DNA of 64,000 nucleotides from an uncultured Candidatus Saccharibacteria bacterium (GTDB lineage Bacteria; Patescibacteriota; Dojkabacteria; JAOAGR01), in the NCBI GenBank assembly GCA_964503755.1, contig CAZDBO010000002.1:261-64260 (forward strand), given 5' to 3'. Below the pieces are notes generated by a model. The model ran no database searches. It had not been told where the DNA came from and saw only the letters and a program-made list of their open reading frames with translations. The position numbers and the translations under genes are program-made. Every line of letters begins with the position of its first letter. Position 1 is the stretch's first letter. This document shows positions 1 to 63,708 of the stretch, piece after piece.

Positions 1-29
1 GATTAAAATATTTATTATTAAATTTATAT

Positions 30-536
30 GTGAAGATAGAAAATTTTTTTGATTCTGTCTTATTCGAAATAAGATGTCTGGAAGTAGAGAGATTGACTGA
101 TTTGCATAAATTACTAAGGATTTTTGAAGAAAAATACGCGGAAGGACGCAGTATAAAAGAATACGTACGGATGATAGACCAAGAAAAAGATTTGTTGAAA
201 AAATCAGAGTTAGAGATGCAAGCATGTCAATATTTTTTTGATCTTTTGGGTAGTGAACGTTTTTTCTTTTATCAAAAAGGGATTTGTAATATGAGTGAGA
301 TTTATAGAAATCGTCGAATGAACTGCAGTGGGTTTTCTTTCATATTATATATTTTGCTTAATAGGTACCTAAAAGTAGAGCATTGGATAGTAGAAACATA
401 TTATCACTTTTCAAATGTTGTTAGGTTATCTAATGATTATCTGGCGTATTGCGATGGATTAGTTTCTCTTATCAAAGATTTGCGTAAAAATGAATATCTA
501 AGAAAAAGTAATCTAACTAAAAGTGTTATTTTGTAG
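30..536 (+). CDS. hypothetical protein (168 aa), no recognisable motif
   Basis: Intact ORF from the track at the window start, upstream of the decayed cas locus. No motif recognised. Confidence 0.3.
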   Translation: MKIENFFDSVLFEIRCLEVERLTDLHKLLRIFEEKYAEGRSIKEYVRMIDQEKDLLKKSELEMQACQYFFDLLGSERFFFYQKGICNMSEIYRNRRMNCSGFSFILYILLNRYLKVEHWIVETYYHFSNVVRLSNDYLAYCDGLVSLIKDLRKNEYLRKSNLTKSVIL

Positions 537-1201
537 ATCCCATACCAAATTCGACACTTGCATACTAGTTATCGATTGAAAGCAACAATTATCGAAACTA
601 TTTTTATGCATTTTTAAATGAATACAGATTGAAAAAACAATTAAATCTAAAAAAATTGATTTTTTTAACTAGAGAAACATTATGAGTTACACCGAATAGT
701 CCGTTGAGTATAATTAATTTGGTGATAACTAATCTAAAAAAGACTATTTTAGAAAAATATAAATTAAGTTTATCAAAAAAAGAAATAAAGATAATTGAAA
801 AATTTTATAAGTCTTGGATAAGAATTTCTATAAAAAGAAACTGGGGATATATGTTTATGTATAGATGTTGCGGGGTTTAGTCATTATTATCACTTAATTG
901 GTGATAAAGATAAAGCGTTTTATTATCCTAGTCTTGTGATGAATTATATAAATCTGGTATGACAAGCTGTACTGATGCATATTATCGTTACGAAGAAGAC
1001 AAAAAAGAAATGCTTGAATTTAGTATAAATTTTGTAAATAAACTAGTTAGAAAACCATTTTATAAAACTATTACATAGAAATGTGTGGATATTTTGAGAT
1101 AATTTAATCACCTTGCGTAAAAAACAAAAATACTCTAACATACATATTGGGACATGTGGTTATAAAAATAAGGTATTAGGTTTTGCCTGATACCGTGACT
1201 C

Positions 1202-1227
1202 GCTCCCAGCTTTGCTCGGAGCTTTTT
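1202..1227 (+). terminator. putative rho-independent terminator (imperfect GC-rich hairpin GCTCCCAGC/GCTCGGAGC followed by TTTTT)
   Basis: Seen in sequence at 1202-1227. It closes the 690-nt ORF-free stretch 540-1200 on the + strand and abuts the stop of the minus-strand ORF ending at 1227. Confidence 0.3.
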
Positions 1228-1895
1228 CATTTTATGAATTTTCTGGATAGTAGTCTTTTACTATGTTTAATAGAAGTTTGAACCATTACATCTGGTAAGA
1301 TTCGGTCCTTGTTTGTATATATAATCTTAAAAGCACTATCATAGAATCGAAGTTCTTCAAATTGTTCAGTACCTGAGTTTTGAGGTGTTAGTCCAAGTTT
1401 TTCGTCGATAATCTGTATGAGATATGAGATTTCGGGATAGCGTACTATCCTACCAACATCATATGCTCTCATGACCTCAAGTATGTCATAACGACTAAAA
1501 TTACATTTATATTCTGGAAAAGGGCATCTACTGGCCCATAATACATGTAAAATTATGGCAATATAGATACGTGCGATTCTTTTGACTAGAATTTCAGAAT
1601 AATTATATGATTTAGATTGCTTTTCTCTAAGTACCAAATCACAAAGTATATTATTACCAATTGTACTCTTTATATCATACAAAAACAGATTGTCAGGTAA
1701 TTATTTAGGTGTTGTTCCATGTAACATTGGGAAACCGTATTCTCTAATACTATTTTCAACACAAAATATACTTGATTCAAAAGATGGATCAACTATTTGT
1801 TTGAATATTAAAAACATTTCAGCCGCTGTACGTATGAAATGAAAATATTTTGGAGACTTTCGATGGCTGAGTATGGATTTTCTGGCATAATAAGT
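1227..1895 (-). pseudogene. disrupted gene of unknown function (frameshift near 1700, two in-frame stops upstream)
   Basis: The track ORF 1227..1682 begins at TTG with a stop 6 codons upstream. Another minus frame continues 1704-1895 as MPENPYSAIESLQNIFISYVQRLKCF*YSNK*LIHLL.... Confidence 0.3.
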
Positions 1896-1973
1896 GTGTA
1901 TAATTACAAGCTATAAACTTGTTTTTGTAAAAAATTTTAAAATCGTATTAAATTTTTTATATAATTGAATATT

Positions 1974-4900
1974 ATGAAATTCAAAAACGTAAACACAAAA
2001 AATTTTGACTATCTAATAGCCCTAGATTTGGCCATTACATCAGTGGGTTAGGCGGTGATAGAGATAGACTAAGAAAACGCTGACGATGAAAAATATGATG
2101 TAAAAGGATTGATAGATGTGGGAGTGAGAGTCTGGGATAGTATTGAAGATGAGAAAGGCAATTTACCATTACACAAAAGAAGAGAAGCCAGAAGTCTCAG
2201 ACGAATAATAGACAGAAGGCAAAAAAGACTTAGAAAAATCAAAAATATTTTTATCTAGAACTATCCTAATGTATTTAAAGATAATGAATATTTTGAATCG
2301 CAAGAATATCTATCTACAGATCCCTACGTTGCAACAGTGAAAGGATTGGATGAGGCCTTGACTTTATCAGAGTTAGCTAGGGCAATATTGCACCTTGCAA
2401 AACGAAGAGGATTTAAGTCCAATGCTAAAGACGCTAAAAAATCTGAAGAGAGTAAAAGTGAAACCGGTTATAAAAGTGGCATACAAAAAACAGAAGAAAA
2501 ACTTTTGAGCGGTAATTATCGTACTATCGGAGAGATGCTTCTAAAAGATGAAATGTTTTCTGAACGAAAAAGAAATGAAGGTGAAAACTATATCTTTGGT
2601 GCAAAAAGAGAGATGATTTTGCAAGAGCTAAAAATGATTTTAGATAAACAGGTTGAACTTGGTGTAATAAATCGTGAAGTTGCAGATTAGCTCCATGGTA
2701 CGGTTGAATATCAAAGACCGTTTGCTACTTCAGAAAACATCAAAAAATTAGTAGGATACTGTGAAATATTTAAGGACGAACTTAGAGCACCTAAGTATGC
2801 TCCTAGTGTAGAATTTAGGTCTTTATGGGAAAAAATAAATAATTTAACATGGTAAGACAAAAGAGGCGATAAGTGGGAAAGCGGATATTTGACAGATGAT
2901 TTGAGGTAGAAATTGTTTTAGCTTGCTTTAGAAAAAAAGGAAATTACTTATTATGACATTAGAACAAGGGTATTAGGATTAAGTGACGAATATGAAATTT
3001 TCTTTAAATCATGTACATATTTTGATAAGGTAAAAAGCTCTAAAAAGAGTAAAAGCAAGAAATCAGAAGGCGAGTCACAAGTTGAAGTCGGACAAGAAAC
3101 TATACAAAATGATAAAGCGAAAAAATCAGAAGAAGATCAAGAACGATTGATACGTATACCCACAAAAAAGCTGAAAGTAGAAAATTTTTGCTCTGAAAGG
3201 ATATCATTTGTTAAAAAGTGTGAATTGCCAGAGAATAAATTTAGTTCACTTTTTGCTGAGCTTGATAAATATGATACTGCAGACAAATTGGTGGAGATAA
3301 TGAATTATTCATATACTGATGATGAACTCAAGCAGAATCTTGCTAATGCGGGTTTGGATGAATATTTTGAATATCTCAAAGAAATATATGCTGATTTTTC
3401 GGGTACTTCAAATCTAAGTATCAAAGCATGTAGAGAAATGTTACCTCTACTTAGGGATCAGGCACTCAAGTATAGTGAGGCAGTAGCACACATTAGATTA
3501 AACAATCCCCAAGAGGCAGGATCAAGATATGATCAATTGCCAGAGGTGGCATATGATGATATTCGTAACCCAGTAGTCCATAGAGTCATTGCACAAACAA
3601 AAAAAGTCATCAACGCACTTATTCAGAGATATGGAAGACCGAGTTTGATTCATATCGAACTTGCTAGAGAGATGAAATTACCAAAAGATAAACGAAGAAA
3701 ATTATCTATCCAAAATCGTGATCGTGAAAGTAAGAATAAATAAATCCAAGCAGAACTGGAGAGATTGGGTATACAAGTCAACGGTACAAACATTACAAAA
3801 TTTAAACTCTGGAAAGAATAGGATCACAAATGTGCCTATTCAGGACGTGAGATCACAGTTGATGATTTCATTGCGAGTACTGAGATAGATGATATTCTGC
3901 CATTTAGTCGCAGTCTTGATGACAGTATAAACAACAAATTACTGGTTTTTGCCCAAGAGAATCAGAACAAACGTGATAGAATACCTTTTGAATATTTTGG
4001 TCATGATACTGAGAGATGGGAACGTATGAAATAGATCTGGATGAATGTAATGAAACTTCATCCATCAAAACTTGCTAGGTTATTGACTGAAAGCTACACA
4101 CAAAGAGATCTAAATTCATTTTTACAAAGAGATTCAAATGATACTAAATATGCCTCTAGATTTATCAAAAATTATTTAGAAAACAATCTGCTATTTAAAG
4201 AAAGTAAAAAACTCAAAAGACGTGTTTATACCTTCCAAGGTTTGCTTACAAGTCTTCTTAGAAAAAGTTATGGACTAACAAGGATAGAGAAGAAAGTCTC
4301 AGACATCACGCCTTGGATGCGGTAGTGGCGGGTGTAGCAAATCAAAAAATGCTGATGAAATTTTGTGAATGGTATAAAATCAAAGAAAATAGACAGAAAG
4401 TATTGGATAAAAGCGTTGATCCCGAATCTATCAAATTTGCTCCTGAGCCATGGACAGATTTTAGAGATGATGTAAATATACGAATATTTAGGGATAATCC
4501 CGTTGAAGAACTTAGAGAAAAAGGAATATTGGATAAACATACGGTAAAGAATATACTAGATTTATACGTCCGCTTTTTGTCTCTAGGATGGCCAAATACA
4601 AGATTACTGGTGCTATACATGCAGAGACAATCAAGTCTATCTGTGAGATTAATGGAAAAGAGTACTTTATAAAAACGATTAGTATTACAGATCTAAAAAA
4701 ATCTAATTTTGAAAAAGATCTCAATTCAAAAGATCTAGAAGGTATGATCATCGCTGATCCTGAGACTATTAGGGTGCTTAGGGAGAGGCTAGAGGAATGT
4801 AATTGGGATATCAAGAAAGCATTTGAAGAGCCTATATACAAACCATCACGAAATTCAGAACGTAAAAATAGAATAAAAAGAATAAAAGTCGTGGACGGTC

Positions 4901-5374
4901 CAGCGGTAACTTATGTAACACTCAAAAGAGGTAAAGGGAAAGGTTATGCTGATAATCGTAGTATGGTACGTGTAGATATATTTAGAAAAAATGGTAAATA
5001 TTACTCAGTACCAGTATACGCTAGTTGGATAGAACGCTATGATCTACCTATACAATATACACCACTGAAAAATAAAAAACACGTTGATGATACACTTGAA
5101 TTTTGTTTTAGTCTGTATCCAAGGGAGTTAGTATATTTGAGTGATGGAGAATATAGTGAATATGTTTACTATGTTAGTATGAACTCTTCAACTGCAGGTG
5201 ATTATGTTTTTGTAACCGATGATTTAGGTAGATATACAAAAAATAAATTTTTAAATAATGATATACGTAGGGTTGGATATATACTTAAAAGCATTACCAC
5301 ATTAAACTATTTAAAAAAGAAATATGTTGACGTTTTAGGCTTTATCCATGATATTAAAAAATCGAGCGTAAGCC
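1974..5374 (+). pseudogene. cas9: type II-C cas9 pseudogene (Nme/Cje-like Cas9, about 1130 codons)
   Basis: All hallmark Cas9 segments are present in order: RuvC-I (1974-2048, ending LDLAITSVG at the TAG), the Arg-rich bridge helix, REC segments matching Nme Cas9, the IRNPVVHRVIAQTKKVINALIQRYGRPSLIHIELARE motif, the HNH domain and the C-terminal PAM-interacting domain. Frame 0 is kept from 1974 to about 4280 despite in-frame stops at 2049 TAG, 2070 TAA, 2256 TAG, 2691 TAG, 2853 TAA, 2907 TAG, 2919 TAG, 3741 TAA, 3819 TAG and 4032 TAG. Frameshifts follow near 4280 (frame 0 to 2) and near 4575 (frame 2 to 1). The HNH catalytic His is replaced by Asp. Confidence 0.8.
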
Positions 5375-6199
5375 ATTATTTTAGTGATTATGGGAAATTA
5401 AATATCAAAGATAAAAGACTTGTTTATACAAAAGACGATAAAGAGATAATAGATATACCAATCGATGATATATCCGCTATAGTGATAGAAAGTAGACAGA
5501 TGATTTTGACGTCTTATCCAATATCTATTGTGCTAGTCATGATATTTTGATCATATTCTGCGATGAAAAACATCTATCAAATGCGATAGCTATACCATTT
5601 CAAAGTTTTGGTCGCCAAAGACTCAGAGTAGAGAAGCAGATTTCTTTATCTTTACCATTCAAACAACAGTTATGGGCACGTATAGTCAGACAAAAGATTA
5701 TTAATCAGGCAAAATTATTAGATAAACTAAATACCGAAACATCAAAACAACTTTATGCTCTGGCCGATGATATCAAGTCTGGTGACAGTGATAATAAAGA
5801 AGGATTAGCATCTAAAATATATTTTAGGTCTTTGTTTGGCAAAAATTTTCTAGAGAAGATGATTCGCATGCGGTCAATAGTCTTTTAAATTATGCGTATA
5901 GTATAGTCAGAGGTTCTATCAGTCGTACTTTGGTGGCTCATGGTTTTATACCATCTTTAGGTATTTTTCATAAGAATCAATATAACAATTTTAACCTTAG
6001 TGAGGATCTGATAGAGCCGTATAGACCTATTATTGATAGTTATGTGATAGATTTATTGAATAAAGGGATGAATAATATCCAAAGTAAAGAAGTAAAATTT
6101 GAATTATTGAAAATATTCGAATGCAGAGTATTATATAGTGATAAAAAAGTTAATATAAAACAAAGTATTGATATATTGTGGATACACTTGTTATGAGTA
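5375..6199 (+). pseudogene. cas1: cas1 pseudogene (type II Cas1, two frameshifts)
   Basis: The N-terminus is read in frame 1, fused to the cas9 frame with no intervening stop. The IIFCDEKHL...NKEGLASKIYFRSLFGKNF segment is in frame 0 (5547-5888). The LNYAYSIVRGSISRTLVAHGFIPSLGIFHKNQYNNFNLSEDLIEPYRPIID segment is in frame 2 (5885-6199). Shifts sit near 5545, next to a duplicated-looking atgatattttgatcatatt, and near 5882 at a TTTT run. Confidence 0.7.
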
Positions 6200-6285
6200 T
6201 CAATGGGCAAGATCCCAAAATACTTTTATTACTAGAGTTGATATTCCTATAAAGCTCTATATTATAATTTTTGTAGTTTTAATTT

Positions 6286-6606
6286 ATGAGTAAGTGTATG
6301 AGGATACTTGTTTTATTTGATTTGCCAGTTGTTACTAAAAAACAACGTAAGATATATGCTCGATTTAGAAAAGCACTTATCAAAGATGGTTATGATATGA
6401 TTCAGTTTTCGGTCTACCAGCGTATCTGTAATGGGCTAGATATGGCAGACAAATATATGCAACGACTCGAGGAGTATGCACCAAAAAGAGGTGCTATAAG
6501 AGCTATGATACTTACTGAAAGACAATTGAAGTATATGTGTGTTATTACTGGTAAGACAAAACCAAAAGAAAAATTGATCAGTGATAATCAATGTGCGTTA
6601 TTTTAA
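6286..6606 (+). CDS. cas2: CRISPR-associated endoribonuclease Cas2
   Basis: Intact 106-aa ORF. The MRILVLFDLPVVTKKQRKIYARFRKALIKDGYDMIQFSVYQRIC sequence matches the Cas2 N-terminal pattern; the true start may be the internal ATG giving MRIL at 6298. Confidence 0.8.
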   Translation: MSKCMRILVLFDLPVVTKKQRKIYARFRKALIKDGYDMIQFSVYQRICNGLDMADKYMQRLEEYAPKRGAIRAMILTERQLKYMCVITGKTKPKEKLISDNQCALF

Positions 6607-6659
6607 TCAAATTTTTGTTGAGTTTATAATGTGAATTTTCTTATTGGGACAAACAAAAA

Positions 6660-6682
6660 GTTGTGGTAGAGTTTACCACAAC
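6660..6682. other. perfect 9-bp inverted repeat GTTGTGGTA-gagtt-TACCACAAC, 54 nt downstream of cas2
   Basis: Seen in sequence. No U-tract follows, so it is not a canonical terminator. It is the only repeat-like element where a CRISPR array or tracrRNA would be expected. Confidence 0.3.
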
Positions 6683-6858
6683 TTGGGAGATATGGGAATA
6701 AAAATAGGATAGAGACCCATGGGTTAGCTTATGAGTCTGTAAAATTATATTATATAAATACAAATTTAACAGAAACCAGTAGACAAACACATTCTTTGAT
6801 TATATTTGTATTTATAGTACAATTATGGGTTAATAAAATTTTTGCATGTTGTATAAGA

Positions 6859-7440
6859 ATGTTTTATGCGAGATCAATTCAACCTTATAATACATTAAAA
6901 TCCGTGCATAGGTTCGAGGCGGCATATCGCTTGGATTCAAAAGATATAGATAGGGATTTGCTTAAAATAATAGAAAAAACTAATATCGAGTATTTAATCA
7001 AAAATGCCACAAAAAAGAAAATTCCAAAACCAGAATTTTTATATCACGGATCACCTGTCAGTGGAATAAAAGTTTTAAAGCCATCAAGTCGAACACGACC
7101 GGGTGTATTGAAAAATAAAGTTTTTCGAGCAGTGTATGCCACAGATATACTTAGCTATGCCTGTGCGTTTGGATTTCCATGGTCAAATGGTGAAGGGTTT
7201 GAACTTATTTTCACAAACGATAAAGTTGAGCTCGGCGTGCCAAAACAATACAAGGATAGGATACAAAAACCACTTTTCGTATATGTTGTCAAGGGAGAAT
7301 ATTTTGAATTATTACCAGAAGCTGCACCAAAAGGACATAATTATTTTTCAAAAACACCAGTACCTGTAGAAAGAGTAACAAAATACAAAAGTGTAAAAGA
7401 TGCCCTACTAAAATTCGAATGTAAAATTTATTTCATTTAG
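6859..7440 (+). CDS. hypothetical protein with LYHGS motif; possible ADP-ribosyltransferase-fold (Tpt1/PARP-like) protein
   Basis: Track ORF 6796..7440, with a likely start at ATG 6859 (MFYARS). An EFLYHGSPVSG motif is followed by aromatic and acidic residues, as in H-Y-E ADP-ribosyltransferases and Tpt1/KptA. This is a weak, memory-based assignment. Confidence 0.3.
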   Translation: MFYARSIQPYNTLKSVHRFEAAYRLDSKDIDRDLLKIIEKTNIEYLIKNATKKKIPKPEFLYHGSPVSGIKVLKPSSRTRPGVLKNKVFRAVYATDILSYACAFGFPWSNGEGFELIFTNDKVELGVPKQYKDRIQKPLFVYVVKGEYFELLPEAAPKGHNYFSKTPVPVERVTKYKSVKDALLKFECKIYFI

Positions 7441-7552: not shown

Positions 7553-8116
7553 CTAAACTATGAAAATGTTTTTTTTATTTAAATATTTCTTAGGTATAAT
7601 CAATCTGCCATTCCCAACAATTATATCTATTTCGGGATTTAAATGATTAATTTTTGTAATATATTTTTCTTGTAATTCATTAGAAAAATAGTTTACTGGA
7701 TAAATATGTTTTATTTTACCAAAAACTATTTCTTCTTCAGTTGGAGGCTCGTCTATTGTAAATAAACATCCAAAATAGGTAGGTATAATTTCTAGAGCTG
7801 TTTTTATAACATCAATATACTGGATTATGTTCTTTTCACCAGATTTATAATCTGAACCCAAAATAAGATCAAGGCCAATACTCATTGACCATACTAGTAA
7901 ATTTTCTGAGTGTAAGGACAAATTTATCCAAAATTCAAAATGTGGTCGCCAAAAATTTAGTGTATTTCTTTTTTTTGCTAAGATCAGTGGACATATTTCT
8001 TTTTTTACAGGACCCAGTTTAGTAAAAATTATGAGTGCATATTGGGGATTTCCGATAGAAAATATTACTCTTGCTGGACCAGGTATTAGGATAGGTTTTT
8101 CTACTGAAAATGCACA
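7553..8116 (-). CDS. hypothetical protein (open frame of 188 codons; first canonical start is TTG at 7921)
   Basis: The track ORF is 7553..7921, but the frame stays open upstream to 8116 with no ATG/GTG/TTG. It overlaps the + ORF 8031..8288 on the opposite strand. It may be a 5'-truncated remnant. Confidence 0.25.
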   Translation of the reverse strand, partial: CAFSVEKPILIPGPARVIFSIGNPQYALIIFTKLGPVKKEICPLILAKKRNTLNFWRPHFEFWINLSLHSENLLVWSMSIGLDLILGSDYKSGEKNIIQYIDVIKTALEIIPTYFGCLFTIDEPPTEEEIVFGKIKHIYPVNYFSNELQEKYITKINHLNPEIDIIVGNGRLIIPKKYLNKKNIFIV

Positions 8117-8518: not shown

Positions 8519-9484
8519 ATGTCTTACAGACAAAATAATGTGACAATGTTGGTTGCAAAAAGTGATTTAGGAGGACGTATTTTTGGATCATCTCATGCTT
8601 TTGAAGCTCTTAAAAGATTGGCCGAAAAAAGAAATCGCAAAATTTTTGAAACGCTCAAATGTATTGAGATTGAACCAGAACATAATAATCCAACAGAAAA
8701 CGATCCATTTGCGAAGTATATAAGTCAGGTTTATGAGTTAAACATAAAACTAGCTTGTGAAATTCAAAAAGTTTTTTCTATTCAAAATAATTTAATTGTT
8801 TTATCAGGAAATCATAGTTCTGCTATAGGAACTATTGCTGGAATAAAATCAGCATTTTCTGATAAAAGATTGGGGGTAATATGGATAGACGCTCATGCAG
8901 ATATTCATTCACCATTTACGACTCCCAGTGGAAATATACATGGTATGCCTCTTGCTTGTTCTTTAGGTGAGGATAACTTTGATTGTTATAAAAACAAACC
9001 GGATTTAGACACTATCAAATATTGGGATAAACTTAAAAATATTAGTAGTATTTGTCCTAAAATTTTTTATGAAGATTTGGTATATATTGGACTTCGCAGT
9101 TATGAAGAGGAAGAAGCATATTTGATTAGAAAAAACAATATAAAAGTATTTACGGTATCGGATGTAAGAAAAAAATCAGTAAAAACTATTTCAACTGAGA
9201 CTCTAAACTATCTAGAAAATTGTGATTTGTTGTATGTTAGTTTTGATATTGATAGTTTAGATTCAAATATAATCACCGGTACAGGATGCCCTGAAACGAA
9301 CGGATTATATGAAAAAGAAGCAAAAGATATTGTTTATTATTTTTTACAAAGTCCAAAAGTAGCTGTTTTTGAGATAACAGAAGTCAATCCTATGCTTGAT
9401 AAAGATGAAAAAACTGTAAATATAGCGTTTGATATTCTAGAAAATGCTATAAATCATATTTACATTAAATCAACTGTAAAGTAA
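8519..9484 (+). CDS. rocF: arginase (ureohydrolase family)
   Basis: SGNHS matches the GGDHS-type motif. WIDAHADIHSPFTTPSGNIHGMP matches the arginase signature DAHxD...SGNLHGxP. The SFDIDSLDSNIITGTGCPETNGL motif is also present. Confidence 0.7.
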   Translation: MSYRQNNVTMLVAKSDLGGRIFGSSHAFEALKRLAEKRNRKIFETLKCIEIEPEHNNPTENDPFAKYISQVYELNIKLACEIQKVFSIQNNLIVLSGNHSSAIGTIAGIKSAFSDKRLGVIWIDAHADIHSPFTTPSGNIHGMPLACSLGEDNFDCYKNKPDLDTIKYWDKLKNISSICPKIFYEDLVYIGLRSYEEEEAYLIRKNNIKVFTVSDVRKKSVKTISTETLNYLENCDLLYVSFDIDSLDSNIITGTGCPETNGLYEKEAKDIVYYFLQSPKVAVFEITEVNPMLDKDEKTVNIAFDILENAINHIYIKSTVK

Positions 9485-10210: not shown

Positions 10211-11683
10211 ATGAAAGTCCTAAATTATTTCAAACACAGTTATAAAATATGGGGAGATTATTTTCATGTTATTTTCTGGATTATTATTTTTGTACTTTTG
10301 TGTATTAAATTTTATTTAGTAACACCTTTAAACCAAGATTTATTTTTGTCAAATTATAAATTTTTTACTCCAGATAGTTATGACTGGATAGCCAATGGAG
10401 TACGTTTTCTTGATTCTAATGAGACATCGGTACGACAACCTGCACTGTCATTGATAATCCATGTTTTATATAATCTAGAAATTTTATATTTACTTCCTTT
10501 GTTAAATCAGATTGTTCTTGCAATATTTCTATTTTATATTTTTAAGATAACATTTCATTTGTTGAAAAATAAATTTATTTCTTACTTTATAGTGTTAGTT
10601 TTAATGTGGAATTATTTCATTCAAAGTTTCAGCCTTTTGATACTTGCTGATTTGTACGCAATGACATTGATTACAATGTCTTTTTATTATCTTATAAAAA
10701 ATAGAATAAGTCTGTCTTTCTTGTTAATTGGATTATCGTGGGCATTTCAAAATTTCTCGCCTTTTCTGGTACCTGCTTGGATTATGTATTTATTTCTTGT
10801 TGATAGACCAAGACTTGAAAAAGAATACATTTTTGAGACCTTTAAAAAATTAGTAGTAAATTTAGTAATATTTGCCTTACCCAATGGCATATATCTTGTT
10901 TATAAATGGATTAGATATGGTGATCCTCTATATACAGGTGTAATACAGTTCCAACTTATTGATCCTAACCTCAATTCTATGCTTTATTATTTTATTAACT
11001 CATTTAGTGTTTTCGGTCTGATTATTTTTATATTGCCTTTTTTCTATATTTTTCAAAAGCAAATCTCAATCGACAGAAAACATTTTCTATTTATGATGGT
11101 TAGCATTGTTATTACATTAGTCTTTTGGACGGTACTATATGAGTGGAATGATAGAAGATTTTTGATTTATCTATTTCCTTTTGTATTTCCTTTAGTTGCT
11201 CTCATGATAAAACAGATTGTGGATTTACAAAATAAAATAAATTTTTCGCATATTCTAAAACTAATCTTTGTCTTTATTTTATTTTTCTACCCTTCTTATT
11301 TTAGTACATCACATGCACTTTTTGGTAATTTAATACCTTTATCTAATTCGGAAAGAATTATTTTGAGTCTGGATAATACTAGCTCCATAGGTTCTTATCC
11401 TTTATCTGTAGTTATAGATCGTGGCAATGAAAAATTTCCTATATTTTTGCGAAATATAAATGCTTTGTATGCAGAGGTTTATGGGCTTAGGCACGCAAAT
11501 AGAAATACATCGAATGGATTTTATAATGAGTATAAGCAAGAAATATTAAACCAGAAAGAAAATATTTTAAATAAAAATAAATTTTGTAACAATAAAAATC
11601 TTTCTGTTTATGAACTTAATTCGATTTCTCTAATTGTAATAAACAAAAGTATCTATAAAGTAAATGTAATTACGGATTGCTAA
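10211..11683 (+). CDS. polytopic membrane protein, putative GT-C-fold glycosyltransferase (PMT/ArnT/YfhO-like)
   Basis: 490 aa with at least 10 predicted transmembrane helices. It sits next to a GT2 polyprenyl-phosphate sugar synthase; the fold assignment is inferred, not shown by motif. Confidence 0.4.
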   Translation: MKVLNYFKHSYKIWGDYFHVIFWIIIFVLLCIKFYLVTPLNQDLFLSNYKFFTPDSYDWIANGVRFLDSNETSVRQPALSLIIHVLYNLEILYLLPLLNQIVLAIFLFYIFKITFHLLKNKFISYFIVLVLMWNYFIQSFSLLILADLYAMTLITMSFYYLIKNRISLSFLLIGLSWAFQNFSPFLVPAWIMYLFLVDRPRLEKEYIFETFKKLVVNLVIFALPNGIYLVYKWIRYGDPLYTGVIQFQLIDPNLNSMLYYFINSFSVFGLIIFILPFFYIFQKQISIDRKHFLFMMVSIVITLVFWTVLYEWNDRRFLIYLFPFVFPLVALMIKQIVDLQNKINFSHILKLIFVFILFFYPSYFSTSHALFGNLIPLSNSERIILSLDNTSSIGSYPLSVVIDRGNEKFPIFLRNINALYAEVYGLRHANRNTSNGFYNEYKQEILNQKENILNKNKFCNNKNLSVYELNSISLIVINKSIYKVNVITDC

Positions 11684-14469: not shown

Positions 14470-16775
14470 TATTATCATCTTCAGTTTGTACTGGGGTTGT
14501 GATTATTGTGTTGGTAGGTGTCATATCTCTATCTTCTGCATTTTCTGTAGGTGTGGATGTAGGTGTCTGAGTGATTTCTATATTTTACGTTGGTGTTGGA
14601 GTAAGAGTAACTGTTGGAGTAGGTGTGTTGGTACCTATACTATTTGCAATAATTTTAACCGAAGCTATTGCTACATCACCATCAGAATCTATTACTTTTC
14701 CAATACATATATATTCACCAGTATTTGGTATGTTTATATTGTTAGATGTAAATGTAGTAGATGTATTATTATTTGATGTTCCAGCACATGTTCCACTAAA
14801 TGCATAATTGTATGTGCATTACCAGATATTGTTTGAGAGATGACTATTCTGAATGCTGTATTAATATCTATATACACTATGCCATCCATATTCGATGCAG
14901 GAGATAAAGCATATAAAACAATTAGAGGATTAGTGTCATTTGTTGGTGTTGGAGTTGGTTTTGGAGTCGGAGTTAAGGCTGGACTTGGAGTTGGAGTTGA
15001 AGTTGGTGATGGCATAGTATTGATTACTATGTTTTTATTTCCGCCAAGCGAATTTGCACTACCAGAATTTGGTAATGTTAGTATCGCGTTATTTAGTACT
15101 GAATCTTTTATGCTACCACCAGCGAGAGATAAAACATGTACATTTGTATAATCTAAATCTGCAGTATTATCTCCTGATGCTATTGTATATGTAAATGTCA
15201 AAGTATTGCTACCAGAACCAGAAGAATATGTTGCACTACCTCCACTGTTTAAGGTTAGTGTAGGTGTATCTGTTACGTTTACATTTTCGTTAAATACAAC
15301 TTAAATTGATATTGTAGCTCCAACTTCGTATGTACCATTAGTAGCTGATGATGTGACATTTGTTATTATTGGAGTACAATCTAGAGTATCTCCGTTTATT
15401 GTCCAATTATTTGGTGCATTTATTAAAGTGTTTCTAGCTGCTACAGCATTACATGACATATCAGCGACATTACTTATATCCCAAGACCCTATATTTTGAT
15501 TAAAAGATGTGGCATCAGAAAACATTAAATACATATCGTTAACATTACTAGTGTCCCAAGAACTGGTTGGTTGATTAAAAGATATGGCTCCATCAAACAT
15601 AAAGCTCATATTCGTCACACTAGATGTATCCCATGATCCAATTGGCTGATTAAACGATGTAGCATCCTCAAACATACTATTCATATCTGTAACATTACTA
15701 GTATTCCAAGAACCGATTGGTTGGTTAAAAAAAGTTGCACCCGCAAACATACCTATCATGACAGTTACATTACTAGTATTCCAGGAACCAATATTCTGAT
15801 TAAATGACACTGCACTTTACTTTGAAACATCCATGCCATATTATTAACACTACTAGTGTTCCAAGACCCTATTGGCTGATTAAAAGATATGGCTCCCGCA
15901 AACATACCAGACATATTAGTAGCATTACTGGTATCCCAAGATACTAATGGCTGATTAAATGACAGTGCATTAATAAACATACCGGACATATGAGTTACAC
16001 TACTAGTGTCCCAAGATCCAATTGGTTGATTAAAGGATAGTGCACCAGAAAACATGTCAGACATATCAGTAACATTGCTAGTATCCCATCCACTAATATC
16101 TTGATTAAATGTTTGAGCATTTTTAAACATGTCAGCCATATCAGTTACTTACTAGTATCTCAATTGCCAATATCCTGATTGAAATTTGAAGCATTCATGT
16201 AAACCCCAGTCATATCATTGATATTTGTTGTGTCCCATGAATTCATTGCAGCATTAGTTGTCAAAGAAGTTGCTACATAAAACATTTGATACATATTTGT
16301 AACATTAGACAAGTTAGGTACATCTGTAGCATTCAACTCCACATTTTCGCATCCGGGAAAAGCTCTTGACATACTCTCCCAAGCTATAGATGATCCCCAT
16401 TGATCAATAGATAATAGTTTTAACCTGTCACCTGCATTGTTGAAGAATATTCTTGGAAACGTTCCAGTTATCCATATCTGATAAGTTCCAGGTGATGAAT
16501 AAGTGCATGTTACATTGCCGGTTTGATTTACATGTTCATTTGTACTATCACCATCAGTCTACATTGTAGCTGTATCCTCCACCTGCTGTGGTAGGTATAG
16601 TAAACTGGTTATTAGCACTGGCACCTGGATTATCTGTTCGAACCGTGATCTTGAATGCATTTGGATTTGCCTATGCTACATTTTCACCACTGTGAAAGTA
16701 AAATATGGCTGATAAACCGATGAATGATAAAATAAAAAGGATCAGCTTAAAATTAAAATTGATCTTAGATATATA
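14470..16775 (-). pseudogene. DUF285 (PARCEL / Mycoplasma-type repeat) surface protein, fragmented
   Basis: About 9 tandem ~26-aa repeats of the form [25 protein letters not shown] appear across ORFs 15301..15810, 15765..16139 and 16160..16372, which lie in three frames. ORF 14734..15201 (same gene, further downstream) carries a Thr/Pro linker TPTPSPALTPTPKPTPTPT. A signal-peptide-like N-terminus near 16770 lacks an ATG, and in-frame stops occur in the 16380-16700 part. Confidence 0.6.
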
Positions 16776-28090: not shown

Positions 28091-28795
28091 TTGGTAGTTT
28101 TATTTTTTAAAGGATTTTTAATAATAAATCAGTACGAATGTGGACTTTTATTTACATTTGGTAAATATTCAGGCCAAAAAGGACCGGGTCTAAATTGGCT
28201 AATCACATATGTACAAACAGTGATAAAGGTAGACATGCGTACTATCACATCTGACGTACCACGTCAGGAGGTAATTACTTCTGATAATGTATCTGTACGT
28301 ATCAATGAAGTTTTGTATTATCGTGTTATATCTCCAGAAAAAGCTTATTTGCAAGTGCAAAATATCGGATTGGCTGTAAATAATTATGCGCAGGCTACAC
28401 TTCGAGATATTATCGGAAACATTACATTAGATGTATTACTAAGCCAAAGGGATAGTATTGCTGATAGGATAAAACAAATTGTGGAACAAATTACAGATCC
28501 GTGGGGAGTAAGGATCGAAGAATTAAGGCTTCAAGATATCGAAATAGACGCAGCTATCAAGACCGCAATGGCCCGTGAAGCAGAAGCAGCAAGGGAGAGT
28601 AAGGCTATCGTTGTGAAGTCTGAGGGAGAACTTGTGGCAGCGCAGCGTATTGCGGAAGCCGCTAGAATAATCAACTCGGTACCCGGAGGTATCACTATAC
28701 GTACACTGAACGCATTAGAACAAACAAGTTCTGATCCAGCGAAAACGATTATTTTTACTTTGCCGATAGAATTGGTGGAAAGTCTAAGAAGATAA
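28091..28795 (+). CDS. SPFH/band-7 (stomatin/prohibitin-like) domain protein
   Basis: IINQYECGLLFTFGKYSGQKGPGLNW...KVDMRT...QEVITSDNVSVRINEVLYYRV matches the stomatin core. A transmembrane segment lies in frame upstream without an ATG, and an ATG in another frame at 28050 suggests an indel in the T6 run near 28062. Confidence 0.75.
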   Translation: MVVLFFKGFLIINQYECGLLFTFGKYSGQKGPGLNWLITYVQTVIKVDMRTITSDVPRQEVITSDNVSVRINEVLYYRVISPEKAYLQVQNIGLAVNNYAQATLRDIIGNITLDVLLSQRDSIADRIKQIVEQITDPWGVRIEELRLQDIEIDAAIKTAMAREAEAARESKAIVVKSEGELVAAQRIAEAARIINSVPGGITIRTLNALEQTSSDPAKTIIFTLPIELVESLRR

Positions 28796-28900
28796 AATCC
28801 GTTTTTTTATTCATTAATTAAAAAATTCTCATAAATTTTTGCGGTTACTAATAGATAATCAATTTACTTTTTGTTATATTGGTTAGACTAAATTAGATAT

Positions 28901-30478
28901 ATGTCACCAAAAATCAAAAAACGACCTAAGCCTGTTGTTTTAGTTATTCTTGATGGATTTGGTATCGCACCACCATATCCAGGTAATGCTGTCACTGCTG
29001 CTAATATGCCTGCATTTAGTAGATTAATAAAATCATTTCCGCATACACTTTTGCATGCTTCTGGATCTGCTGTAGGACTTCCTCATGGAGTTGTGGGAAA
29101 TAGTGAAGTTGGACATACTAATATTGGCGCTGGAAAAATAGTTTATCAAACTTTACCTCGTATCAACTCTGCCATAAATAATGGTAGTTTTTTTGATAAT
29201 CAAACTTTGATTAATGGTATAAAACACTGTAATACATATAATTCTAATTTTCACATAATGGGCTGTGTATCGACAGGAAATGTACATGCGGCATTAGAAC
29301 ATTATTTTGCTACTTTACATACGTTAAAAAAACATGGTTTTGATGGCAGACGAGTATTTATCCATGCATTTACGGATGGTCGAGATACTCCTCCCGATTC
29401 ATCACTAAACTTTTTATCAATGCTTGAATCTGAATGTAGGAAATTAGGCATAGGTAGGATTTCTTCTATCATAGGTCGATATTTTTCGATGGATAGAAAT
29501 AATAAATGGGATAGGACTAAAAAGGCTTATGATTTGATAGTAGAGGGTATTGGAGAAAAATTTAAGAGTATTGAGGAAGTAGTAAAAACTTCATATTCAC
29601 GTGGTATAACAGATGAATTTATAGAACCTTCATTGATAATCAATCAACAAGGTGGTGTGGATACAATAAAAGATAATGATGTTGTTTTTTTTGTAAATTA
29701 TCGTGCGGATCGTGCTCAGCAGTTAACAAAAATGTTTATTGAACCAGATTTTAATAAGATAGATTGTAATCGACGCAATAATATTTTCTTTATTGGAATG
29801 ACACAGTACGACAAGAATCTTACTCCACGCATGCATCTTGTTTTTGATCCTGAGAATGTTACGGTACCTATAGGAAGAGTTATTTCAGAAAGTGGACTGA
29901 GACAGCTGCGTATAGCCGAAACAGAAAAGTTCGCTCATGTTACATTTTTCTTCAATGGGGGTAGAGAAGTCGTATTTGAACGAGAAGATAGAGTTCTTGT
30001 ACCTTCGCCCAAAGTTGCTACTTATGATTTGAAGCCTCAGATGAGTACTTATGAGCTTACGGAGGTATTGGTACAAAAGATTAGGCTTAATATTTATGAT
30101 TTTATTGTTGTAAATATTGCTGCTACAGATATGGTAGCTCATACTGGGGTGTTTAATGCGGCGGTAAAAGCAGCAGAGGCTGCTGATTATAATCTTGATA
30201 GGATAGTAGTAAATACACTTGCGGTTGGCGGTGCGGTCTTTATCACTGCAGATCATGGAAATATTGAGGTTATGATAGATCCTGCCACAGGCAAGCCTCA
30301 CACAGAACACACGACTAATCCAGTACCTTTTATCTATGTTGGTCCTGGTGCTAAACCAATAGAGTTACCTATGGGAGCACTCTGTGATGTTGCACCAACT
30401 ATTCTTAATGTAATGGGAATTCCTATACCTACTCCCATGCAAAATAGTCGTAATTTATTACATTCAGTTATTGACTAG
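28901..30478 (+). CDS. gpmI: 2,3-bisphosphoglycerate-independent phosphoglycerate mutase
   Basis: VVLVILDGFGIAP at the N-terminus, SEVGHTNIGAG, and metal-binding TADHGN near the C-terminus. Confidence 0.9.
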   Translation: MSPKIKKRPKPVVLVILDGFGIAPPYPGNAVTAANMPAFSRLIKSFPHTLLHASGSAVGLPHGVVGNSEVGHTNIGAGKIVYQTLPRINSAINNGSFFDNQTLINGIKHCNTYNSNFHIMGCVSTGNVHAALEHYFATLHTLKKHGFDGRRVFIHAFTDGRDTPPDSSLNFLSMLESECRKLGIGRISSIIGRYFSMDRNNKWDRTKKAYDLIVEGIGEKFKSIEEVVKTSYSRGITDEFIEPSLIINQQGGVDTIKDNDVVFFVNYRADRAQQLTKMFIEPDFNKIDCNRRNNIFFIGMTQYDKNLTPRMHLVFDPENVTVPIGRVISESGLRQLRIAETEKFAHVTFFFNGGREVVFEREDRVLVPSPKVATYDLKPQMSTYELTEVLVQKIRLNIYDFIVVNIAATDMVAHTGVFNAAVKAAEAADYNLDRIVVNTLAVGGAVFITADHGNIEVMIDPATGKPHTEHTTNPVPFIYVGPGAKPIELPMGALCDVAPTILNVMGIPIPTPMQNSRNLLHSVID

Positions 30479-30480
30479 AA

Positions 30481-31809
30481 ATGTTTTTATGGTGGTCAAA
30501 AATAAAGAAATCTATCAAAAATAACAAAAATAATTTTACTTTTAATCTTGGACAAAAATTTAAGTTAAATAATAAAAAGAACAATAAGACTATCCTAAAA
30601 AATAAATCTGATGGTAAAAGTGGATTAAATAATATCAAATCAATATTTAATTTTAACTTATCAGGTGATGTCGTACTTTTTGCTTCTTTTGTATTTATTA
30701 TTTTGATGGGAATATTGATAATTTTTAGCGCATCAGTAGTGTCAGCTTCTTTTTATACTTCGGATAGATTTTGGTTTTTTTTCAATCATATCCAGAAAAT
30801 TATTGTAGGTATTATTTTCTTTTGTTTTTTTTATTTTATTCGTGCCGATTTATTAATAAAATTTAGTATTTTTGGCTTTTTAGCTATTTTGGGGATACTT
30901 GTTTTTCTTTCTATATTAGGATTATTTGGTGTTGTAGAGTCGGTAGATGGTGCTGCAAGGTGGATAGAAATATTCGGCATCCAATTCCAACCCTCTGATT
31001 TTCTTAAACTATTTTTAATATTATTAGGAGCTAAAGCATTAAGCAAAATTGAAAAATATTATTCATTAAAAGATTATTTAAGATCTAAAGAATTTAAAAT
31101 TTTGGTACTAATAGTTCTATCTATCATACTCGTTTTAGTTGGTAATACAAATCTTGGGACATCAATAGTGTTATTTTCAATTCTTATTGCTATATATTTT
31201 GTTTCACCTTTAAATAGATGGAAAATTTTCGTTATTATTTTCTTTTTGGTTTTAGGTATTTTGGGAAGCATTTTGTTTATAAATTTATTCGCCTATCGTA
31301 TGGATCGTATCGCAGTATGGTACGAATATATCACTACAGGAAATAGTCGGCTTTTAGATTGTCCCAATAATCCTGATTGTTCATATCATTTTCATAATGC
31401 CTTGATTACATGTGGAAGTGGAGGACTCTTCGGTGTAGGTGCTGGGAAATCCATTGGAAAATACTTTCTGCCCAAAACATCATCTAGTGATGATAGTGTA
31501 TTTTGTATCATGGCAGAAGAACATGGATTTATAGTGGTTATATTTATTTTGCTTCTTTTATTTTTTATCGCTTTTAGAATGTTAACTATTGCTAATCAAA
31601 TAGACAATATTAAATACAAAATTATCTTGGTGGGAGTTTCTATTTGGATTATTGTACAAGCTTTTTTACACATTGGATCTAACATTGGACTTACGCCAAT
31701 GACTGGTCAGACATTACCTTTTATCTCATTAGGAGGTAGCTCTATAGTGTCTCTTATGTCGGCTATGGGGATCTGTATAGGCATATCTGGCTATAGAAAT
31801 GATAAATAA
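30481..31809 (+). CDS. ftsW: FtsW/RodA/SpoVE family peptidoglycan glycosyltransferase
   Basis: About 10 transmembrane helices, a large periplasmic loop, and C-terminal GQTLPFISLGGSSIV. Confidence 0.8.
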   Translation: MFLWWSKIKKSIKNNKNNFTFNLGQKFKLNNKKNNKTILKNKSDGKSGLNNIKSIFNFNLSGDVVLFASFVFIILMGILIIFSASVVSASFYTSDRFWFFFNHIQKIIVGIIFFCFFYFIRADLLIKFSIFGFLAILGILVFLSILGLFGVVESVDGAARWIEIFGIQFQPSDFLKLFLILLGAKALSKIEKYYSLKDYLRSKEFKILVLIVLSIILVLVGNTNLGTSIVLFSILIAIYFVSPLNRWKIFVIIFFLVLGILGSILFINLFAYRMDRIAVWYEYITTGNSRLLDCPNNPDCSYHFHNALITCGSGGLFGVGAGKSIGKYFLPKTSSSDDSVFCIMAEEHGFIVVIFILLLLFFIAFRMLTIANQIDNIKYKIILVGVSIWIIVQAFLHIGSNIGLTPMTGQTLPFISLGGSSIVSLMSAMGICIGISGYRNDK

Positions 31810-31815
31810 AAATTT

Positions 31816-33582
31816 TTACATTTTGTCTATAGTATCAATCCCTAACAAAAACAATCCTTTTTCTACGATCTTCACGTATATTTTAACAATATTAAGGCGT
31901 GTGATGTTTACTTTCTCCTCATCTATAACGCGATTATTTTTATAGAATTCGTTAAACAAAACTGCTATATCATAAAGATATCTTGCGATTCGATGCGGTT
32001 CTAAGTTTTTTGTAGATTCAAATACGACATCAGTAAACTGGTAAAGTTTTTTTAAAAGATCAGATTCACTTTCTGTGAATTCTAAATTTTCTATTTTATC
32101 AGAAAAATTCTGAGCATTTGATATTATATTTTTTGCCCTAACAAAGCTATAAAGTATATAAGGACCAGAAAATCCATCAAGAGCCAAGAAAATTTTGGGA
32201 TTAAATACAAGATTATTTTGTAGCTCGTGTGATAAGAAAAAGAATTTAAGTCCTCCAACACCAACAATATAGCTTATTTTTTCAATTTCTTCTGCTGTAT
32301 ATGTTTTTGACTCAGCCATTTTCTTTTTAGCTTCTTCTATAGCTTCATAAATTAGATCATAGGCACCTTTGGCGTTTCCTAGTCTTGTACTTGTTTTTTT
32401 ACCATCTGGGCCTAGTACCCAACCATATCCTATGTGATGGTATTTACCATTCAATTCTTTAAAAGCTTTGTTTATAGCTTCTATGAGATTTTTGAAGTAG
32501 TCGTTTTGCTCAACTGATGTCAAAACTATTGAAAATTCGGGTACACCAAATTCGTTAACTTTCATTCGTGCAAGACTAAAATCCTTAGCACCATAAGTAG
32601 GTATACCACGTGAATTTATGTAAACTTGCGTTATTCCATTCGAATCTCGATAAATGATTGAACCTTGATCATCTATAAAAATATGGCCAATAAACTGAGA
32701 AATAAGCTCATACGCATCTTTTGCCGCCTTTGATTCACTATAGTGTTTATCAAATTCATCAATATTCAAAAATTTAAGAAAATTAACAATATGATCAAGA
32801 CTCCAAGATAATAAAATATCAAAAATTTTATTTATTTCTGGATCTATTTTTTTGTATATTATATAGTTTAATTCATCAATTTCTTTTTTTATATTTTCAT
32901 CTTTACCATAAGCATCGTTACCTTTTACGTACAATTGTAAAATAAGTTTCATTTTGTCTTTTTCATTCAAGCGTGCGATTTCTTCTGATTCTACGTCTAT
33001 ACTTTCTTGTTTTAAAGCCCATATAGTTTTTGCAATATGTAAACCCATATCAGAATAATAATTCATCCTAACCACATTAAAACCAAGATTTTCTATCATA
33101 CGTGCTAGCGCATGACCTGTTATAGTATTTCTGAGATGTCCTACTGTTAGGGACTTGAATGCATTAGGTGAACAAAACTCGACAAATACTTTTTTATTCT
33201 TTCCAATATCAAACATTGGCTTTGCGGAAAAAAGATTGTTTTGAAGATTTATTAGCTCATCATAAACATTATTAATATCCAAGCTTATATTTACATATCC
33301 ATTTTCTGCTGATGCATTGAAACCATGATTTTGCAAAAATGATTCGATTTCTTGTGCTATTAATATTGGTGATTTTTTAAAAATCTTTGTAAGTTTGAAG
33401 GATATGGTAGTACTAATGTCTGTTTTTTTATTTTTGTCTTGATTGAAATAGACATTTATTTCATTTTCATCATAATTTTGATTTGTACCTGCATTTACTT
33501 TGATATAATCTACTAGAAGATTTTTAATTCTAAATGTAATATTATCTTTTAATTCTAAATCAATTAGTTGTTTTATTATCAT
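31816..33582 (-). CDS. argS: arginine--tRNA ligase
   Basis: A class-I HIGH-like SPNAFKSLTVGHLRN motif, GPDGKKTSTRLGN in place of KMSKS, and a C-terminal DALR-type anticodon-binding region. The track ORF runs to 33627; the start was chosen at MIIKQLIDLE. Confidence 0.85.
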   Translation of the reverse strand: MIIKQLIDLELKDNITFRIKNLLVDYIKVNAGTNQNYDENEINVYFNQDKNKKTDISTTISFKLTKIFKKSPILIAQEIESFLQNHGFNASAENGYVNISLDINNVYDELINLQNNLFSAKPMFDIGKNKKVFVEFCSPNAFKSLTVGHLRNTITGHALARMIENLGFNVVRMNYYSDMGLHIAKTIWALKQESIDVESEEIARLNEKDKMKLILQLYVKGNDAYGKDENIKKEIDELNYIIYKKIDPEINKIFDILLSWSLDHIVNFLKFLNIDEFDKHYSESKAAKDAYELISQFIGHIFIDDQGSIIYRDSNGITQVYINSRGIPTYGAKDFSLARMKVNEFGVPEFSIVLTSVEQNDYFKNLIEAINKAFKELNGKYHHIGYGWVLGPDGKKTSTRLGNAKGAYDLIYEAIEEAKKKMAESKTYTAEEIEKISYIVGVGGLKFFFLSHELQNNLVFNPKIFLALDGFSGPYILYSFVRAKNIISNAQNFSDKIENLEFTESESDLLKKLYQFTDVVFESTKNLEPHRIARYLYDIAVLFNEFYKNNRVIDEEKVNITRLNIVKIYVKIVEKGLFLLGIDTIDKM

Positions 33583-49241: not shown

Positions 49242-49594
49242 TTGCAAAAAATTAAAAATTACTCAAACTAAGATCTGTATAATATATATAATATAAAATA
49301 CTCCTAAGATGTCTCAAACAGCTATAAAATCAGTAAAAATATTTTAATATTGTACTGATTAATTTTGAATTTACATTTATTTGATTAATGTTTTGCAACG
49401 TTTTCATGCATATCAGATCTATGTGATTGGATAATTTCTAATTTATTTCTATTAATCAAAAAGTTTATCATTTTATAAGATATCTCTAACCAAAACCTAA
49501 TTTTTATTGACTAAATATTTGTTTTCTTATAACTAAAGACAAATTTTATCAGTTCTTAATTTAGATTTTGTTTTTCTGCAAAGAATCATATATA

Positions 49595-50092: not shown

Positions 50093-50149
50093 CTGCTTTT
50101 TATGTAAACCAACCATTACATCTTTTTAAAATATATATTTCCAAAATAA

Positions 50150-50817: not shown

Positions 50818-51044
50818 CTACAGGTGGATTTCCTGTAGATAGGGGAAAACTTGCTATAAACATAGTTCATCAGGATTTGATAATCCTTTTGTTGAACTAT
50901 TTCTTCGTGTTCACAGTATGAAAGAAAAAACTGCAGCTGAAGTATTCAATTATTCGCTAGGTGGTACACCCTTTGAAATCAGAACAATTTGAGATATTCA
51001 AATCTTTATTCTCAACAAATTACATGATATTATATATCTGTCTT

Positions 51045-63630: not shown

Positions 63631-63708
63631 CAGATTATGCAAAAACACTCTAAAAATGACATAAAATCATTTTCAATTATCACCAAATCATGATAAAATA
63701 CGTTTTAA

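Follow-up and report, generated by a model that had tools for sequence, protein, structure and literature searches.

The 64-kb window analysed here (the whole 64,000-nt stretch of contig CAZDBO010000002.1) carries near its 5' end the remains of a CRISPR-Cas locus, very probably a vertically inherited type II-C system of Candidatus Dojkabacteria, a bacterium of the Candidate Phyla Radiation (CPR), whose function was lost very recently and which is now eroding in place. The genes cas9, cas1 and cas2 lie in canonical order on the + strand at 1974-6606, as had been proposed in a sequence-only reading of the same DNA, which described a complete but inactivated II-C locus and a snapshot of immunity loss in a reduced-genome lineage. 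That description was supported by the lesions, by an intact ortholog in a sister genome and by a second assembly (contig L063). The long decay that it implied was not. The decay is instead very young (ratio of nonsynonymous to synonymous substitution rates, dN/dS, 0.05-0.08, with no missense excess), and it also reaches beyond the cas genes.

The window is AT-rich (GC ~30%), and the listing of its open reading frames (ORFs) showed only short ORFs on the + strand between 1974 and 6606. Three-frame translation gave a Cas9-like sequence from 1974 that shifted between frames and was broken by TAG and TAA codons, never by TGA. Three genes were delineated:

1974..5377, + strand: cas9 pseudogene (type II-C), identified by the TIGR01865 profile and the intact ortholog of isolate SKW36
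5378..6252, + strand: cas1 pseudogene, its start and first ~6 codons deleted, fused in frame to the cas9 remnant
6286..6606, + strand: cas2, an intact ORF of 106 aa, or 102 aa from the second ATG (TIGR01573, PF09827)

Profile searches with the frame-corrected translations matched the Cas9, Cas1 and Cas2 families at levels well above chance. The stitched conceptual Cas9 (1131 aa, with 10 stops) was recognisable along its full length, scoring 583.6 bits (E 1e-174) against TIGR01865 over profile positions 1-1069 of 1070. The corrected Cas1 scored 269.2 bits against TIGR03639, the type II Cas1 model (profile 6-273 of 278), and Cas2 scored 78.8 bits against TIGR01573. Pfam was in agreement (HNH_4, RuvC_III, Cas9_RuvC, Cas_Cas1 and CRISPR_Cas2), the RuvC and HNH matches holding for the frame-corrected remnant only, as the cas9 ORF itself is broken.

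The closest PDB sequences to the Cas9 were enzymes of 1055-1095 residues (9ar4, 8jtj/8uza, 8hnt and 6kc8/6jdq; E 1e-129 to 1e-158), the best of which we take to be the II-C enzymes GeoCas9 and NmeCas9. The match to SpCas9-type entries was far weaker (E ~1e-21), and the amino acid identity to characterised Cas9 enzymes was only ~30-33%. The neighbouring ORFs 1227-1682, 6796-7440 and 7553-7921 and a gene for a 585-aa protein upstream showed no match, and no defence or mobile-element assignment, in Pfam, PADLOC, NCBIfam or PHROGs. Because the best structural relatives are taken to be II-C Cas9s, only cas9, cas1 and cas2 are present and the neighbouring ORFs gave no family matches, the locus is assigned on sequence grounds to type II-C, as a three-gene set without csn2 or cas4; the subtype proposed earlier was thus borne out.

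An intact counterpart was found in a sister genome. Logan contig L001 (run SRR27730018) is 99.6% identical to JAOAGR010000007.1 of Candidatus Dojkabacteria bacterium isolate SKW36; the only three cas genes on this contig, cas9 (1150 aa), cas1 (298 aa) and cas2 (102 aa), are all intact. The loci L001/L004 and their Cas9 (P0001/P0175, MCX8035125.1) were used as the intact reference. This 1150-aa protein, P0001, was the closest to the Cas9 remnant (78% amino acid identity), followed by one protein at 45% and all others at ~30-35%; a homolog search with the N-terminal 589 aa returned distant Cas9s only and missed P0001 itself, and was uninformative. Positions 3409-8207 of L001 aligned to window 1974-6701 at 80.6% nucleotide identity, and the gene upstream in L001 aligned to window 6-1227 at 73%, so that the neighbourhood is syntenic. 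Gene order, the 585-aa upstream gene, a block resembling a trans-activating CRISPR RNA (tracrRNA) gene and the start of a repeat ~60 nt after cas2 are common to both loci. The SKW36 locus differs in that all its ORFs are intact, its contig breaks within the first repeat, and its 492 nt from tracrRNA to cas9 are unrelated to the 742 nt of the window.

The host is assigned to Candidatus Dojkabacteria, a class within the CPR. The arginyl-tRNA synthetase (ArgRS) of the window is 84% identical to the Dojkabacteria ArgRS MCX8035271.1, which we take to come from the same metagenome-assembled genome (SKW36) as the Cas9 MCX8035125.1, the accessions being close; the divergence of the cas genes therefore matches that of the rest of the genome. 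Since a sister Dojkabacteria genome has both a syntenic intact locus and a similarly diverged ArgRS, the locus was inherited vertically and not imported already dead.

The lesions were mapped by base-by-base global alignment to L001. About 10 in-frame stops had been reported in cas9, and exactly 10 were found: seven TAG (2049, 2256, 2688, 2907, 2919, 3819 and 4032) and three TAA (2070, 2853 and 3741). The relative has sense codons at 10/10 of these sites, seven of them one base and three (2256, 2853 and 2907) two bases away from the stop; the residues lost are W, E, Q, Q, V, Q, E, E, Q and Q. The two frameshifts counted previously in cas9 were too few, as five 1-nt deletions (3164, 3185, 3213, 4277 and 4540) and a deletion of ~35 nt over the cas9 stop and cas1 start were identified. 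The deletions at 3164, 3185 and 3213 lie in A7, T6 and A6 runs and jointly restore the frame after ~16 scrambled codons; those at 4277 and 4540 are uncompensated. A net loss of 30 nt at 5254-5287 is in frame. The larger deletion, at ~5355-5378, removed the last ~8 cas9 codons and the stop together with the cas1 ATG and first ~6 codons, and joins the two remnants in frame; in the alignment it appears as a 34-nt gap at 5378, opposite L001 bases that include the cas9 stop and the cas1 ATG. The HNH motif reads EIDDILPF in the window, compared with EIDHI in both relatives (DH to DD), and the replaced His is the catalytic residue of the motif.

For cas1, two frameshifts were again an underestimate: three 1-nt deletions were found (5526, 5841 and 6178). 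After frame correction cas1 had no in-frame stops and ended at its own TAA (6250-6252). As had been stated, cas2 is intact, and its product shares 91.5% amino acid identity with the L001 Cas2. In its present state the locus is predicted to be inactive, neither interference nor spacer acquisition being possible.

To judge these lesions, a second assembly was available for part of the locus. Logan contig L063 (2946 nt, run SRR11582145) covers window 4137-7078 and departs from it by a single intergenic indel of 4 nt, with 0 mismatches. The deletions at 4277, 4540, 5355-5378, 5526, 5841 and 6178 all recur in it, as do the broken ORFs and the cas2 ORF. Sequencing or assembly errors therefore cannot explain the frameshifts of the 3' half. 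For 1974-4136, which holds all 10 stops, no second assembly was found, and exact-protein look-ups (3147-3743, 2337-2690, the 136-aa form of 1227-1682, ArgRS and an arginase-family ORF at 8519-9484) returned nothing on record. The refutation offered earlier, that the lesions are assembly errors, thus fails for 4137-7078 and could be checked against a second assembly in that part only. That all stops and frameshifts are errors in a truly intact locus is nevertheless hardly credible. Four of the 1-nt deletions do lie in homopolymer runs (A7, T6, A6 and A3), a typical site of long-read error, and the stop-bearing 5' half has a single assembly; but the separate SRR11582145 assembly has every frameshift of 4137-7078, and a further 3775 nt elsewhere are 100% identical between assemblies (Logan contig L003, window 28311-32085). 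In addition, an error rate like that of the cas region, above two 1-nt deletions per kb, would break most of the 17 contiguous intact ORFs at 28-49 kb, and random base errors would give ~10 missense changes per stop, an excess that is absent. Base errors are accordingly implausible as the source of the 10 stops in the 5' half.

The sole difference between the two assemblies over 2.9 kb is an ACAT indel at window 6252/6253 (L063 2116-2119), right after the cas1 stop. The cas locus is still changing, as this 4-nt indel separates two assemblies of one population.

The genetic code is standard: the 41 intact ORFs of the window end in TAA (22), TAG (12) or TGA (7). Codes 4 and 25, in which TGA is sense, were ruled out, 0/10 cas9 stops being TGA, and so was reassignment of TAG or TAA, both being ordinary terminators of intact ORFs in the window. 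That a full-length Cas9 is still made, through stop reassignment or read-through combined with programmed frameshifting, is very improbable. Such a product would fit the absence of accelerated missense change, as if the protein were still selected, the replacement of Gln by five of the seven TAG codons, as in TAG-to-Gln recoding, and the mutual compensation of three frameshifts. It is opposed by the use of TAG and TAA as terminators, by the uncompensated deletions at 4277 and 4540, by the deletion of the cas9 stop and cas1 start, by the replacement of the HNH His by Asp, and by the lack in the window of an array to supply guides. No suppressor tRNA was seen in the window either, where Rfam at the gathering threshold identified three tRNAs only (Pro, Ser and Ala).

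Both RNA components of the system left candidate traces. The stretch 540-1970, in which no CRISPR repeats had been seen, holds the putative remnant of a tracrRNA gene:

~1119..1228, + strand: tracrRNA gene remnant, identified by conservation, fold and anti-repeat duplex
~1134-1169, + strand: anti-repeat of the predicted tracrRNA
~1172-1194, + strand: nexus hairpin
~1203-1228, + strand: terminator hairpin and T-run

In L001, the corresponding block lies ~500 nt 5' of cas9 and consists of ATTGGGACATATGGTTATAAAAATAAGG, then two hairpins and TTTTT. Its calculated fold, with both hairpins ahead of the UUUUU tail, has an energy of -40.5 kcal/mol (z = -6.4); for the window version, in which the terminator stem contains a C-C mismatch, the energy is -27.3 kcal/mol (z = -3.3). 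This block is the most conserved of the locus, with ~9 differences in ~109 nt relative to L001 (~92% identity) against 73-80% in its flanks. The predicted duplex of anti-repeat and repeat has an energy of -27.1 kcal/mol, compared with -13.4 +/- 2.7 for shuffled repeats (z ~ -5). A promoter-like site with a TG extension was noted at 1076-1103, and such sites arise at chance frequency. Rfam at the gathering threshold matched no tracrRNA family in the window.

Downstream of cas2, the statement that there are no CRISPR repeats near the locus held for arrays, since TRF and a repeat finder detected none in the 64-kb window. It did not hold for single repeats, as one putative 36-nt repeat was found:

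6670..6705, - strand: solo CRISPR repeat, 36 nt, crRNA (CRISPR RNA) sense ATTTTTATTCCCATATCTCCCAAGTTGTGGTAAACT, identified by position, complementarity and the L001 contig break
6658..6684, - strand: terminator-like hairpin and T-run formed by the repeat 3' end and the cas2-side flank, with an 11-bp stem followed by TTTGTTTGTC

About 60 nt 3' of cas2, both genomes read GTTGTGGTAGAGTTTACCACAACTTGGGA(C/G)ATATGGGAATAA, and the L001 contig stops exactly there. L001 covers 32 nt of the repeat, 31/32 of them identical, and these 32 nt are the final bases of the contig; a break inside the repeat is as expected, because a multi-copy array would break the assembly. The repeat sequence predicted for this locus and for the sister SKW36 array is ATTTTTATTCCCATATGTCCCAAGTTGTGGTAAACT. 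The window repeat scores 35/36 against the 36-nt consensus, the first four bases of which were borrowed from the window. Within its first 24 nt, we count 20 that pair with the tracrRNA anti-repeat (20/24), and at its 3' end stands TGGTAAACT, which is similar to an extended -10 box. The hairpin at 6658-6684 is the sole terminator-like site in 900-7000, and its stem is unchanged in L001. No second copy of the repeat at 24/36 or better was found in the 64 kb except the anti-repeat and one chance-level match. A scan of JGI metagenomes with the repeat core gave one unrelated chance match (L062), and the full array was not recovered. From these data we infer that the upstream block is a tracrRNA gene and that 6670-6705 is a surviving CRISPR repeat, which would belong to an array transcribed from the - strand towards cas2. 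The repeats of II-C systems are each reported to carry a promoter (PMC12080349).

The intact cas2 and the well-preserved RNA elements could also mean that parts of the locus were kept for a new job, for example cas2 as a stand-alone nuclease or toxin and the tracrRNA with the solo repeat as a regulatory RNA pair. We regard this as improbable. It would account for the intactness of cas2 and for a tracrRNA block (~92% identity) and a repeat (35/36) conserved beyond their surroundings. However, by our own calculation cas9 and cas1 together carry ~19 lesions in 4.3 kb (~4.4 per kb), a density at which a gene of 321 nt escapes with P ~0.24, so that the intactness of cas2 needs no special explanation; past constraint likewise predicts high conservation when the neutral period has been so short, and a tracrRNA without Cas9 has no known partner.

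The age of the inactivation was estimated from the amino acid changes in the dead genes. Over the whole divergence from L001, dN/dS was 0.082 for cas9 (dS 1.18), 0.058 for cas1 and 0.054 for cas2. With the 45% relative as outgroup and the scrambled stretch excluded, Cas9 had 48 lineage-specific changes in the window lineage and 42 in the intact lineage (23 vs 22 in the N-terminal part, 25 vs 20 in the C-terminal part). With L031 as outgroup, the corresponding counts were 9 vs 8 for Cas1 and 1 vs 0 for Cas2, and the control, the intact ArgRS, gave 14-17 vs 11-13. As the dead genes show essentially no extra missense changes, the genes were inactivated only very recently compared with the split from SKW36.

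Several results weigh against a locus that simply lost its function and drifted. The stops are too many for the missense count: 10 nonsense changes lead one to expect 90-200 missense changes, or 42-95 at the 535 lineage-assignable codons, in a wide range that comes from context-free mutation spectra, and about 6 were seen (likelihood-ratio p = 0.0003-0.05 depending on the spectrum), so that the pattern does not look purely neutral. All of the stops (10/10) lie in the first 687 of the 1551 operon codons (p = 0.007 within cas9, p = 0.0004 operon-wide), within the part represented by one assembly only. TAG accounts for 7/10 of them where ~31% is expected (p ~0.013); the changes from Gln to stop are TAG in 5/5 cases, although CAA exceeds CAG 28 to 12, and the Gln-to-TAG sites showed no 5-methylcytosine signature or fixed motif, having nothing in common other than CAG/CAA. 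Finally, the call of the repeat is founded on complementarity, position and the contig break, a multi-copy array of it having been recovered nowhere.

The stop pattern could reflect loss driven by selection, in which disabling mutations were repeatedly favoured, either because ever earlier stops shorten a useless 1150-aa product in a very small cell or because alleles with multiple lesions cannot be repaired by recombination with intact relatives. This explanation is possible, but we consider it unlikely. In its favour are the gap between expected and observed missense changes, the confinement of the stops, a cas1 without any stop, and the ArgRS control, which shows that the lineage is not slow. 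On the other side, a single lesion suffices to inactivate, so that repeated selection requires an added assumption; a concentration of mutation at CpA-to-TpA and GpA-to-TpA (21-31% nonsense opportunities) would shrink the discrepancy to ~2 standard deviations; the locus was chosen for follow-up because of its many stops, which introduces an ascertainment bias; and the half with the stops is covered by one assembly only. The specific form of the idea, that nonsense mutations were repeatedly selected, with the first stop moving 5'-ward in a dead but expressed gene, or that stacked lesions blocked recombinational repair, is slightly less likely still. If true, it would explain the 10 stops with few extra missense changes, their place in the first 687 codons and the stop-free cas1 and cas2, and would mean that a very small cell actively silences a pseudogene and does not leave it to drift. 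The stop excess, the 5' clustering and the TAG preference, whether caused by mutation bias or by repeated selection for earlier truncation, are suggestive only. The excess and the clustering are the only unusual feature of what is otherwise an ordinary pseudogenised locus.

Under recent loss and erosion in place, the reading that we prefer, the ancestral locus would have consisted of the 585-aa gene, the tracrRNA gene (+ strand), cas9-cas1-cas2 (+ strand) and an array beginning ~60 nt after cas2. This array would have been transcribed from the - strand towards cas2 by promoters within the repeats. The closing of cas9 is due to the 10 nonsense codons, the five 1-nt deletions and the His-to-Asp change at HNH, and that of cas1 to the loss of its start and the three frameshifts. 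The array would have collapsed to a single repeat, probably through recombination between repeats, and the tracrRNA gene and cas2 would be nearly intact merely because little time has passed.

Decay is not limited to the cas genes, as the 585-aa gene, a PARCEL-repeat gene and a PIG-L homolog are also broken. Upstream of cas9, two further features were recorded:

1..1066, + strand: pseudogene (585-aa hypothetical protein), truncated at the window start; its counterpart in the intact relative adjoins tracrRNA/cas9 on the upstream side
1232..1973, no strand assigned: segment between tracrRNA and cas9 start, without similarity to the 492 nt that L001 has there

With the product of L001 990-2747 (585 aa) as query, tblastn aligned positions 3-521 in frame 3 (65% identity) and 527-1051 in frame 2 (49%). 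The remnant has an in-frame TAG and TGA, and at least three frameshifts, near 521, 870 and 945. The joint decay of this gene and the cas genes could mean that they were functionally connected, or simply that the whole block is decaying. A sensitive blastn comparison of 1232-1973 with L001 2917-3408 yielded chance matches only, homology resuming at the cas9 ATG. The segment may be a replacement or an insertion that also removed the cas9 promoter. Within it, an orphan ORF of 151 aa was noted (1227-1682, - strand), which had no family matches and no relative among 1.84 billion representatives except a 99% identical 136-aa protein; the latter seems to be this ORF again, annotated with a start further downstream.

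Further afield, a gene for a PARCEL-repeat (Mbov_0838-type) surface protein with 75-nt tandem repeats (14734-16372, - strand) is split into at least four ORFs and probably represents a further pseudogene with frameshifts. At 63730-64000 (+ strand), a homolog of PIG-L family deacetylases runs off the window end and is interrupted in frame by a TAA at 63907; a long frame at ~62400-63300 (+ strand) contains two in-frame stops and matched no family. Only 67% of the 64 kb falls within tRNAs or ORFs of 100 aa or more, a low proportion for a CPR genome; nine stretches poor in ORFs, each 500 nt or longer, total 16.4 kb (for example 49242-51044 and 61807-64000). The low coverage suggests wider recent gene decay. 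A 647-aa protein encoded at 36175-38118 (+ strand) has an N-terminal PrgI-family domain and carboxypeptidase-regulatory-like repeats, and its gene stands in a long same-strand run that includes poly-gamma-glutamate capsule (PGA_cap) and ATP-grasp proteins.

The locus resembles II-C systems of the Neisseria meningitidis, Geobacillus stearothermophilus and Campylobacter jejuni type in its minimal cas9-cas1-cas2 content without csn2/cas4, its type II Cas1 and the size of its Cas9 (~1150 aa here, 1055-1095 aa in the best solved relatives). The 36-nt repeat with an extended -10-like end and the predicted tracrRNA with anti-repeat, AAGG-type nexus hairpin and terminator are also similar. It differs from them in its broken cas9 (10 stops, at least 5 frameshifts and the HNH His-to-Asp change), its truncated and frameshifted cas1, and an array consisting of one repeat.

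A second II-C locus was present in the complete genome of Dojkabacteria KatS3mg085 (AP024679.1, L031 9998-14710), where cas9-cas1-cas2 is followed by an array of 36-nt repeats. Its - strand repeat ends in TGTATAAT (-10-like), and TTTATTCCC is common to both repeats. Its Cas9, however, shares only 34% identity with that of the window; the cas9 frame is interrupted once, by a TAA at codon 204 (10607-10609), cas1 and cas2 are intact, and only three repeats and two spacers are left. This locus may have been caught at an earlier point in a loss of this kind, or the stop may be a sequencing error.

In the part of PMC6509639 that cites Burstein et al. 2016, CPR bacteria are described as rarely carrying CRISPR-Cas, with a figure of 2.4% quoted for Parcubacteria and Microgenomates. 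A decayed type III-A locus in CPR, reported in 2016 and described here after the passage in the citing paper, resembles the present case as a decayed CRISPR-Cas system in a small-genome CPR lineage. As far as that passage describes it, the earlier case differs in type (III-A against II-C here) and in phylum-level group, and in the present case an intact sister ortholog permits lesion mapping and recent dating. The locus is thus a new example of an already known kind of event.

The disappearance of CRISPR-Cas in CPR is seldom seen directly, and here the loss has been caught under way, with all components (tracrRNA, cas9, cas1, cas2, one repeat and a terminator) still recognisable. With the intact sister ortholog, each lesion can be located and a very recent date assigned to the event. 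The analysis also provides a predicted repeat/tracrRNA pair for an uncharacterised Cas9 clade, at 78% identity to an intact 1150-aa enzyme, which could serve for guide RNA design.

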